DNA of 18,208 bases. Origin: a virus. Its lineage: Duplodnaviria; Heunggongvirae; Uroviricota; Caudoviricetes. The stretch lies in the IMG/VR virus record IMGVR_UViG_2879754190_000001. One strand, written 5' to 3'. Of this stretch, positions 2,395 through 4,659 are shown piece after piece. The translations under genes and the position numbers were made by a program. How positions within the stretch are numbered: the first letter of the stretch is position 1; every line of letters begins with the position of its first letter. Under the pieces are notes generated by a model. The model was not told the DNA's origin and did no database searches. It saw only the letters and a program-made list of their open reading frames with translations.

Positions 2395-3062
2395 GTGTGC
2401 CCGGAGTTCAGGGCGGGCATGGATGCTTAAATGAACCGCGAGTCTGTCTGGAATATTGAACCGGTAACTCACGATGAGAAACCCAACAATCCCACCGGGT
2501 GTGACGGTGGAGAACCTGAGCGGCAGTGACCTGCGGCATGCCCGCAGGGTGATGTAACCCGCTGACAACGGGGATTGAGGCGAGATCACTAAGCCGAGAT
2601 GATCCTCAAGGTTAAGTACTGAAAGGCTGAAGAACATGAACCCGTTAATCCGCCTCTGTGGGTTGAAAACGTCACCACGGCCTACGTGATCTGACAGGCC
2701 GTGCAGGAGGAACTGGCAGTGATACGTAAGCACTGCCGGTCGAAGGTGTTTTGACATGTATGCGAAACACCGGGGCAGCAGCGTCTATCACACTTGCGTT
2801 GCTGACTTCTGCCAACTTGCGGCAAGCAAGGATAAAGAGTGCGACGGGCAGCCTCCTCAGTATGCCTGAGTCCGGCAGGTAAACCGGGAAGGTCAGCGAC
2901 GGATGTTAAGGGGCATGGCTCCGATGACGCGCTGGCTGGCGGAGCTTCCGTAGTAGTCCGCGATGGGGAAAGCCCATTACATGGCGAAGGGAAGCAGTTT
3001 GAATGTGTTTGCGACGTGAATTAACTGACCTAACGAGGTGAAGACCTTTGATAATCAGCGAA

Positions 3063-4570
3063 ATGCAACGCAAGCTTGCCACATGGGCAGCCACCGATCC
3101 GTCCCTACGGATTCAACGGCTGCTGCGTCTGATAACACAACCAGAATGGCTGGCTGAAGCGGCGCGGATCACGCTTTCATCAAAGGGGGCCCATACCCCC
3201 GGCGTTGATGGCGTGAACAAAACAATGCTACAGGCCAGACTGGCTGTTGAGCTGCAAATCCTCAGGGATGAATTACTCTCAGGCCACTACCAGCCCTTGC
3301 CCGCCAGACGGGTTTACATCCCTAAAAGCAACGGCAAACTGCGACCACTGGGTATCCCCGCGTTGCGGGATCGTATTGTTCAGCGGGCCATGCTGATGGC
3401 GATGGAGCCGATATGGGAGAGTGATTTTCATACGCTCTCATATGGCTTCCGGCCTGAGCGCAGTGTCCACCACGCGATCCGCACGGTGAAATTACAGCTC
3501 ACAGACTGTGGTGAAACCCGGGGACGCTGGGTGATTGAAGGCGACCTGTCCAGTTACTTCGACACCGTACATCATCGACTGCTGATGAAGGCTGTACGCC
3601 GCAGGATCAGTGACGCACGTTTCATGACTCTGCTGTGGAAAACCATCAAGGCGGGACATATCGATGTCGGTCTCTTTCGGGCGGCCAGTGAAGGTGTGCC
3701 ACAGGGCGGTGTTATATCGCCGCTATTATCGAACATCATGCTGAATGAGTTCGATCAATACCTGCATGAGCGCTACCTGAGCGGGAAAGCCAGAAAAGAT
3801 CGGTGGTACTGGAATAACAGTATCCAACGGGGCCGAAGTACGGCGGTCAGAGAAACTGGCAGTGGAAACCCGCGGTGGCGTACTGCCGCTATGCCGATGA
3901 TTTTGTCCTCATCGTCAAAGGCACCAAAGCACAGGCGGAAGCCATCAGGGAGGAGTGTCGGGGTGTGCTCGAAGGCAGTCTGAAACTCAGGCTGAACATG
4001 GATAAGACTAAAATCACCCATGTTAATGACGGCTTTATCTTTCTGGGGCACAGGATCATTCGCAAACGCAGTCGTTATGGCGAGATGCGAGTGGTCTCAA
4101 CGATCCCGCAGGAGAAAGCCAGAAACTTCGCCGCATCGCTGACAGCACTGTTATCAGGCAACTACAGTGAAAGCAAAGTCGATATGGCTGAACAACTCAA
4201 CCGAAAACTGAAAGGCTGGGCCATGTTCTATCAGTTCGTTGATTTTAAGGCCAAAGTCTTCAGTTATATCGACCGTGTCGTGTTCTGGAAGCTGGCTCAC
4301 TGGCTGGCCCGCAAATACCGTACAGGTATCGCTTCCCTGATGAGGTGGTGGTGTAAATCACCGAAACCGGGTCAGAGCAAAACGTGGGTTTTATTTGGTA
4401 AAACCAATCACGGCAAGCTCAGCGGCGAAATACTGTACCGGTTGGTGGGGCAAGGCAAGAAGCTGTTCCGCTGGCGGCTACCCGAAGGTAATCCCTATCT
4501 GAGGACGGAGACCAGAACACGTATACATCGCGCTTTACAGAAGTGGCAATGGCGTTCGCCAGGCATTTAA
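3063..4570 (+). pseudogene. Group II intron-encoded reverse transcriptase/maturase, split by a frameshift near 3850-3860; no HNH endonuclease motif seen
   Basis: RT motifs GVDGV, RRVYIPKSNGKLRPLGIPALRDRIVQ, SYGFRPERS, GDLSSYFDTV and GVPQGGVISPLLSNIMLNEFD in one frame; YADDFVL, LNMDKTKITHV, GFIFLGHRI and the maturase-like C-terminus in the -1 frame. Confidence 0.8.
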
Positions 4571-4575
4571 ATGGA

Positions 4576-4609
4576 GAGCCGGATGCGCTGAAAGGTGCAC
4601 GTCCGGTTC
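4576..4609 (+). other. Group II intron catalytic domain V hairpin (part of the ribozyme RNA)
   Basis: GAGCCGGATGCGCT-GAAA-GGTGCACGTCCGGTTC: 34 nt, AGC catalytic triad near the base, GAAA tetraloop, close to the domain V consensus; sits about 50 nt from the intron 3' end. Confidence 0.75.
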
Positions 4610-4659
4610 GGGGAGGAGAGCAGGGAAATAGTCCGACTACGCCCTGCCTCTTACTCTAC

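Follow-up and report, generated by a model that had tools for sequence, protein, structure and literature searches.

The DNA that we analyzed is the virus record IMGVR_UViG_2879754190_000001, a stretch of 18,208 nucleotides (nt) that is referred to below as the window. Its setting, traced by exact look-ups of the proteins of neighboring phage genes, is a Shigella flexneri chromosome with a defective P22-like prophage containing portal, scaffold, coat, gp4, gp10, needle, ejection-protein and gp16 genes. A copy of the insertion sequence (IS) IS911 cuts the terminase large-subunit gene of this prophage, and the orfB gene of IS911 is in turn interrupted at positions 2395-4659. Judged by its sequence, the interrupting DNA belongs to the group II introns. 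It lies on the sense strand of IS911 orfB, one mobile element nested in another, and it shows all those defining features of such introns for which an in silico test exists. The intron is E.c.I4; the finding is real and its core interpretation correct, but the occurrence of E.c.I4 in IS911 has already been catalogued and published.

The first bases of the insert are GTGTG (GUGUG at 2395-2399) and the last are AC (4658-4659), which are the conserved GUGYG and AY termini. The IS911 orfB frame is open to 2394 and is taken up again at 4660, with an Ile codon divided A|TC between the two sides; the insertion lies after the first base of the codon that follows D-V-T-Y. The Rfam family RF00029 (domains V/VI) matched 4574-4659 with 64.9 bits, compared to a gathering score of 40 (E 5e-11), and the match covers the full model (1-77) and ends on the final insert base, 4659. 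When Rfam was searched with a permissive threshold, no domain I-IV family was matched and only domain V/VI and two plastid D5 models were found; low-scoring matches to CRISPR-DR8, a snoRNA and CyVA-1 were dismissed as chance. We describe the 5' structure by an RNAalifold consensus of the 5' 670 nt of seven relatives that are 73-100% identical. Of the 186 pairs in this fold, 36 have changed on both sides, and these compensated pairs indicate that upstream of the open reading frame (ORF) the RNA has a conserved structure. This is expected of domains I-III, which we took as one structured region. One G is missing from domain VI of the window at 4619; the predicted folds have energies of -43.4 kcal/mol (window) and -48.2 kcal/mol (intact), and the bulged A is kept in both.

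The boundaries were confirmed independently by an empty site. S. flexneri CP034931.1 (locus L008) contains the same IS911 with the same terminase junction and lacks exactly 2395-4659: window 2394 aligns with L008 position 6472 and window 4660 with 6473, flush with the intron termini. A second locus, CP106857.1 (L007), is colinear with the window across IS911, intron and phage genes, and it encodes an intact reverse transcriptase (RT) of 502 amino acids (aa). One locus that is occupied in the window and L007 and precisely empty in L008 is the signature of a mobile intron, and we take it as indirect evidence of mobility.

The intact intron-encoded protein, WP_001189111, contains the Pfam domains RVT_1 (1.4e-34) and GIIM (1.3e-10), and the Pfam scan of its 502 aa found no HNH or other endonuclease domain. 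In the window the RT is divided into two ORFs, 3048-3983 and 3875-4570, and both RVT_1 and GIIM were detected on the fragments. The break is a 1-nt deletion at 3852, and the C-terminus is changed by indels at 4515 and 4562. An exact-sequence look-up of the frameshifted RT fragment returned no record.

A preliminary description of this DNA had proposed a group II intron nested at 2395-4659 in the sense strand of IS911 orfB, and all the features it described are present: the stop of the orfB frame at 2394 and its resumption 2265 nt later are exact, and the GTGTG start, the AC end, the domain V at 4576-4609 and the coding region for an RT/maturase were all seen, far more agreement than chance would give. 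The fold against an intron covariance model that it suggested was obtained for domains V/VI, but not for domains I-IV, for which Rfam gave no match. Its suggested comparison with catalogued E. coli and Shigella introns led to E.c.I4. The insert differs from NC_011748 3366025-3368295 (E. coli 55989) by two substitutions and seven 1-nt indels specific to the window, or 99.6-99.7% identity over 2270 nt, and that segment is the copy E.c.I4-3a in Table S3 of Leclercq & Cordaux 2012 (PMC3522654). Sequences that are >95% identical are given one name in the database (PMC3552965), and by its sequence the window insert is E.c.I4 on this criterion.

The suggestion that the insert is some other RT element (a retron, a defense RT or a stray RT gene) that lacks a ribozyme and merely happens to be inside IS911 could appeal to the fragmented RT ORF of the window and to the missing Rfam match for domains I-IV. 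It would have to explain a domain V/VI score well over the gathering score with an end exactly at the insert boundary, the GUGUG...AC termini, the GIIM maturase domain of the protein, the 36 compensated pairs conserved within the 5' 670 nt, the existence of a precise empty site and the match to a catalogued group II intron. We regard this alternative as already refuted by the results, its probability being next to nothing. The coordinates of the intron, its parts and its surroundings are given in Table 1.

Table 1. Positions in the window of the intron, its host IS911 and the interrupted terminase gene.
Feature	Position	Strand	Details
IS911 left part (5' exon)	1638..2394	+	left inverted repeat TGAAGTGG from 1638, orfA ATG 1710, N-terminal orfB
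First catalytic Asp of the D,D(35)E transposase	GAT 2382..2384	+	aligned to human T-lymphotropic virus 2 (HTLV-2) integrase core PNHIWQGDVTH; 10 nt upstream of the intron
Group II intron E.c.I4 (ORF class A)	2395..4659	+	2265 nt in the window; 2270 nt in intact copies
Exon-binding site 2 (EBS2), tentative, GAGAUCA	2582..2588	+	domain I hairpin loop; stem conserved
Exon-binding site 1 (EBS1), CGUAAG	2725..2730	+	in 9-nt loop 2722-2730 (AUACGUAAG)
RT/maturase (ltrA), domain IV	3063..4570	+	502 aa in intact copies
Domain V, catalytic hairpin with AGC triad and GAAA tetraloop	4576..4609	+	RF00029 alignment and two plastid D5 models
Domain VI, bulged A of the branch point at 4653 (6 nt upstream of the 3' splice site)	4610..4657	+	Rfam alignment
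IS911 right part (3' exon)	4660..5146	+	rest of orfB, stop 5136-5138; right inverted repeat ends CCACTTCA
3' remnant of the P22-like terminase large-subunit gene, cut by IS911	5147..6186	+	Terminase_6N and Terminase_6C on the orthologous 350-aa L008 product

The host was identified as IS911 from the joined exons, which are 98.7% identical to copies annotated in RefSeq as 'IS3-like element IS911 family transposase'. As in IS911, an IS3-family element whose orfA and orfB are joined by a programmed -1 frameshift, we found the same terminal repeats, the same gene order and the catalytic residues D, D and E. When the spliced OrfB was aligned with the HTLV-2 integrase core, HSDQG of IS911 matched NTDNG; the second Asp is GAT 4827-4829 and the Glu is GAA 4935-4937, with 35 residues between them. 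The preliminary description had put the insertion at the DDE-motif codon, and this needs correcting: the intron does lie within D-x-T-Y, yet 10 nt downstream of the Asp codon, GAT 2382-2384. The window copy departs from IS911 in being interrupted by the intron, in reading A5G instead of A6G at the programmed-frameshift site (about 1954-1959), in four other homopolymer deletions and in the lack of a target-site duplication. No duplication of 3-4 bp was found at the IS911 ends, where ...GCAATGA precedes the left end and CCTTTCT... follows the right one, which fits a later IS-mediated rearrangement; this concerns the history of the copy and not its family membership. The 3' exon is 100% identical to several other S. 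flexneri IS911 copies, and the window's exon sequences are identical with the ones in the IS911-resident copies L004, L007, L023 and L031.

E.c.I4 and S.f.I1 go back to Dai & Zimmerly 2002, as cited in PMC3522654. S.f.I1 is the name under which E.c.I4 is also catalogued in Shigella. The two are 99% identical and both are placed in ORF class A of the Zimmerly database nomenclature, a class without an endonuclease domain (Toro & Martinez-Abarca 2013, PMC3552965); the window intron is in the same class, which we take from that paper and which agrees with our endonuclease-less Pfam result. Known insertion sites of E.c.I4 are specific positions of the transposase genes of IS629, IS911, ISEc16 and ISEc31 (PMC3522654). 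In comparison to E.c.I4/S.f.I1, the window copy has the same architecture, with RT and maturase and no endonuclease domain, and it has the same IS911 host, orientation and insertion point as the copies in E24377A, Kluyvera and other S. flexneri strains; it differs by 1-nt indels that are probably assembly errors. Its chromosomal locus, the P22-like prophage remnant of FC906-type strains, is absent from the copies listed in the E.c.I4 survey of 2012. We found a match to E.c.I4 in 2663 of the 5426 complete E. coli genomes (about half) and in 2177 plasmid records from Escherichia, Klebsiella, Salmonella, Enterobacter, Yersinia, Citrobacter and Shigella. A comparable case, likened here by its description, is S. 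flexneri SFL1613, in which an IS911 with a group II intron inside lies upstream of gtrIC (PMC4924310); the nesting and the species are the same, while the locus is another one and its IS911 is further interrupted by IS30 and another transposase.

The way in which the intron recognizes IS911 was approached through its exon-binding sites. The 9-nt loop that contains EBS1 is closed by a stem with compensatory changes (alignment columns 326-354). EBS1 pairs at six of six positions with CUUACG of an IS629-like exon, and with CCUAUA of IS911 it forms three Watson-Crick pairs and one G.U pair out of six; the exons compared are UGAUUUU-A-CUUACG|U for the IS629-like element (as in EC958) and UGAUGUG-A-CCUAUA|U for IS911. 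EBS2 pairs at all seven positions (two of them G.U) with -14 to -8 of the IS629-like exon and at five of seven with IS911. The relative on Y. pestis pMT1 has the loop GAUAUG and the exon CCUAUC, a double compensatory change at -1 and -2 with respect to E.c.I4, which supports the assignment of EBS1. For EBS2, both-side changes at -11 and -14 were noted by eye in a Bradyrhizobium relative, this one diverged sequence being the support. A2724, beside EBS1, can pair with the U that invariably begins the 3' exon, and is a possible delta or EBS3-like partner for it. The pairing of EBS1 and EBS2 with the 5' exon, which the preliminary description had looked to, was accordingly found in full for the IS629-like exon and only in part for IS911, with EBS2 tentative. 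An alternative EBS1, UGUGGGU at 2657-2663, pairs at seven of seven positions with both the IS911 and the IS629-like exons by way of G.U wobbles, yet a conserved helix (columns 270-273 with 287-290) partly buries it and it is unchanged in relatives with different exons, whereas the 2722-2730 loop covaries; for these reasons it was rejected.

We searched the IS911-resident copies for an adaptation of EBS1 to IS911 and found none: CGUAAG is kept, and E24377A has the same loop with one change in the stem. IS911 therefore appears to be a relaxed, non-cognate target. The perfect fit of the loops to the IS629-like exon and their partial fit to IS911 suggest that an IS629-like element is the cognate host. 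RefSeq names the IS629-like host only as 'IS3 family transposase'.

The same protein motif is found at the insertion points of relatives in other elements. At least nine different IS3-family 5' exons end in W-x-x-D-x-T-Y plus 1 nt, and the IS3-type hosts come from Escherichia, Shigella, Pantoea, Enterobacter, Kluyvera, Superficieibacter and Tenebrionibacter, as well as from a Halomonas metagenome-assembled genome (MAG), Klebsiella, Yersinia pestis pMT1, Salmonella and Bradyrhizobium. In E. coli 55989 (L003, NC_011748 3365025-3369295) the host IS of the same intron is chimeric: its 5' exon comes from an IS629-like element, while its 3' exon is identical to that of IS911. Presumably it arose when intron copies that lay in different ISs recombined. 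The Halomonas MAG (L032) combines a third kind of 5' exon with an IS629-like 3' exon. A close relative of E.c.I4 in an IS3-type exon was also seen in an actinobacterial assembly, on the 3202-nt contig14 of Microbacterium tenebrionis (L027); the sequence of its EBS1 loop is different (AAUGUAUAGCC) and pairs poorly with its own exon. This intron could be enterobacterial contamination or a real transfer.

The frameshifts of the window were counted against L007, the orthologous intact locus. Over the segment comprising IS911 and the intron (3509 nt) the window has twelve 1-nt indels but only a single substitution. Runs of at least two identical bases hold ten of these indels, one being the A6G slippery site read as A5G; the 1-nt homopolymer deletions in exon 1 are at 1881, 1889, 1958, 1989 and 2101, and the indels in the intron are at 2873, 2885, 2909, 3852, 4515, 4562 and 4619. 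The adjoining single-copy phage DNA (8362 nt) has one 1-nt indel, at 6108, so that indels are enriched 29-fold in the multicopy repeats relative to adjacent unique DNA (binomial P = 4e-6). We also compared exon 1 with 15 other IS911 copies, from sixteen S. flexneri loci, and four of its five deletions occur in none of them, the fifth occurring in one. Over 15,472 nt the window shows 100% identity to CP037996.1, the record of S. flexneri 2a FC906. That genome was assembled with Unicycler and Pilon from MinION R9 1D and Ion Torrent PGM reads and contains 391 predicted IS elements and 735 pseudogenes (PMC6836418).

From these frameshifts the preliminary description had concluded that both elements are dead here. 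The twelve indels would then be real mutations and the copy a decaying fossil of intron and IS alike. The deposited sequence does carry the indels, and if real they would split the RT at 3852 and weaken domain VI and a conserved domain I helix; E.c.I4 copies with broken ORFs within mobile elements are reported from S. flexneri 2457T and E. coli SMS-3-5 (PMC3522654). Natural decay, however, proceeds mostly by substitutions, and a ratio of 12 indels to 1 substitution has a P of about 4e-8 if indels make up no more than 20% of events. The preference for runs, the concentration in repeats and the absence of four exon-1 deletions from the other IS911 copies also count against decay, and both sequencing chemistries miscount homopolymers while short reads cannot be placed uniquely in repeats. 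We consider a truly dead copy improbable, and the statement that both elements are dead to be unsafe. Because the chemistries are prone to homopolymer errors, the repeats could not be polished by short reads and the indels are concentrated in those repeats, the frameshifts are very probably homopolymer consensus errors of the hybrid assembly. RT errors made during homing were considered as another cause and rejected, as the flanking IS911 exon and the upstream IS show the same type of indel.

The position 6108 is a run of four A in the window and in CP037996.1 and of five A in nine other assemblies, one of which is independent and read-based. The deletion ends the truncated terminase ORF at 6115 instead of letting it abut the portal gene at 6186, and it is probably another homopolymer error. 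Window 1-1300 holds a second IS3-family element; in sister strains the product of its orthologue is a transposase of 424 aa that contains HTH_Tnp_1, HTH_21 and rve domains. This IS has three similar small indels with respect to L007 (393, 749 and 787), which fit poor polishing of repeats.

Taking these results together, we give a probability of roughly 0.9 to the reading that 2395-4659 is E.c.I4 that retrohomed in the sense orientation into a prophage-resident IS911, by EBS targeting guided by the motif, and that its frameshifts are most probably assembly errors. The intron would have entered an IS911 that was already present in the terminase large-subunit gene of the defective P22-like prophage. 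Transcription of IS911 would give a precursor in which the intron RNA, assisted by its maturase, folds. Splicing by branching at A4653 would then rejoin the exons as ACC UAU A|UC UGG and restore the message for the D,D(35)E transposase. The excised lariat together with the RT could reverse-splice into other DNA copies of the motif and, since the protein has no endonuclease, nascent DNA at replication forks would serve as the primer for complementary DNA. The target would be chosen by EBS2 (2582-2588) and EBS1 (2725-2730), possibly with A2724, pairing with the DNA that encodes W-x-x-D-x-T-Y, and such pairing with the DNA of a conserved IS3 motif would place the same intron at the homologous position of many IS3-family elements. 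What the sequences show is the anatomy of the element, its occupied and empty alleles, the target motif in common and the potential of the domain I loops to pair; splicing, the branch point, dependence on the maturase and endonuclease-independent priming are inferred here by analogy with other group II introns that have been studied.

One useful comparison is RmInt1 of Sinorhizobium meliloti, whose home is ISRm2011-2. Like E.c.I4 it is an IS-resident intron with a protein that lacks an endonuclease domain, and for both an IS offers a home that is safe and present in many copies. The homing of RmInt1 is presumed to be primed at replication forks. RmInt1 belongs to ORF class D and not A, and its ribozyme sequence is unrelated to that of E.c.I4. 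Its target is one IS of another family, in contrast to the coding motif common to many IS3-family members that is the target of E.c.I4.

Several points weigh against our reading. EBS1 has mismatches with the IS911 exon at -1 and -5, and this weak pairing means that splicing from IS911 may be inefficient; EBS2 and the pair of A2724 with the +1 U have little covariation behind them. The assembly-error origin of the frameshifts is strongly argued for rather than demonstrated, and the literature that we searched yielded no splicing or mobility data for E.c.I4. Finally, the occupied and empty states of the locus could come from homologous recombination between IS911 copies that have the intron and others that lack it.

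The last point leads to a different history, in which no homing took place at this copy and an IS911 already loaded with the intron replaced, or recombined with, a resident intron-less IS911, or transposed in as a loaded element. S. flexneri has very many IS911 copies, the locus is rearranged differently between strains, this IS911 has no target-site duplication, and chimeric host ISs do exist, as in 55989 with its IS629-like 5' exon and IS911 3' exon. The junctions of IS911 with its flanks are nevertheless identical in L007 and L008, where the precise presence of the intron is the sole difference, and retrohoming explains this equally well; moreover, transposition of a loaded IS911 of 3.5 kb with an interrupted transposase gene would need splicing or a transposase supplied in trans. 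We judge such a history to be rather unlikely.

A broader proposal may be made, which we offer tentatively as having less than an even chance. E.c.I4 and its class A relatives might be specialized parasites of the IS3 family as a whole that read the DNA of the invariant first-Asp motif (GAY-NTN-ACN-TAY-N), their EBS1 loops tracking the synonymous third-codon positions. In the non-cognate IS911 the intron might home and splice poorly, acting as a brake on transposition and not as a silent passenger, and intron copies in different ISs might recombine into chimeric ISs, of which 55989 has an example. That IS911 is a relaxed target and an IS629-like element the cognate one, as the pairing suggests, could be tested at little cost and matters for the influence of IS-resident introns on the activity of their hosts.

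The discovery value of this copy is small, E.c.I4 in IS911 being catalogued, published and present in about half of the complete E. coli genomes. The natural pair of an occupied locus (L007 and the window) and an empty one (L008) offers material for work on how a class A intron without an endonuclease homes in Shigella. The frameshifts are a caution that the apparent pseudogenization of repeats in hybrid long-read assemblies should not be read as biology.

The surroundings of IS911 vary among strains. Between the upstream phage ORF and the left end of IS911 the window has 18 nt (1620-1637, TTACCTTTGTTGCAATGA) that are absent in L007 and L008. These 18 nt are present in L009, L011 and L012, where they are continuous with a longer 172-aa minus-strand ORF beside lysis genes, and their presence in some strains only indicates that the left junction of IS911 differs by an IS-adjacent deletion of 18 nt. 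In other S. flexneri strains (L006, L010 and L013) the terminase-adjacent IS911 is inverted or has other left neighbors, such as type VI secretion system or lambdoid lysis genes. The varied neighbors and the missing target-site duplication point to repeated IS911-mediated inversions and deletions around the prophage remnant. At the right end of the window (17882-18208), an ORF similar to an IS orfA begins just after the gp16-like gene; its product in sister loci has 108 aa and an HTH_Tnp_1 domain, and the prophage remnant is thus bounded by ISs on both sides.

Two further differences were noted among the phage genes. The tail-needle gene (Phage_tail_NK, 12737-13534) codes for 265 aa in the window, as it does in some of the S. 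flexneri assemblies, and for 282 aa in others, and the difference in length is due to an in-frame variant near the 3' end (13492-13508). A separate 6-nt in-frame indel is found at 10761.

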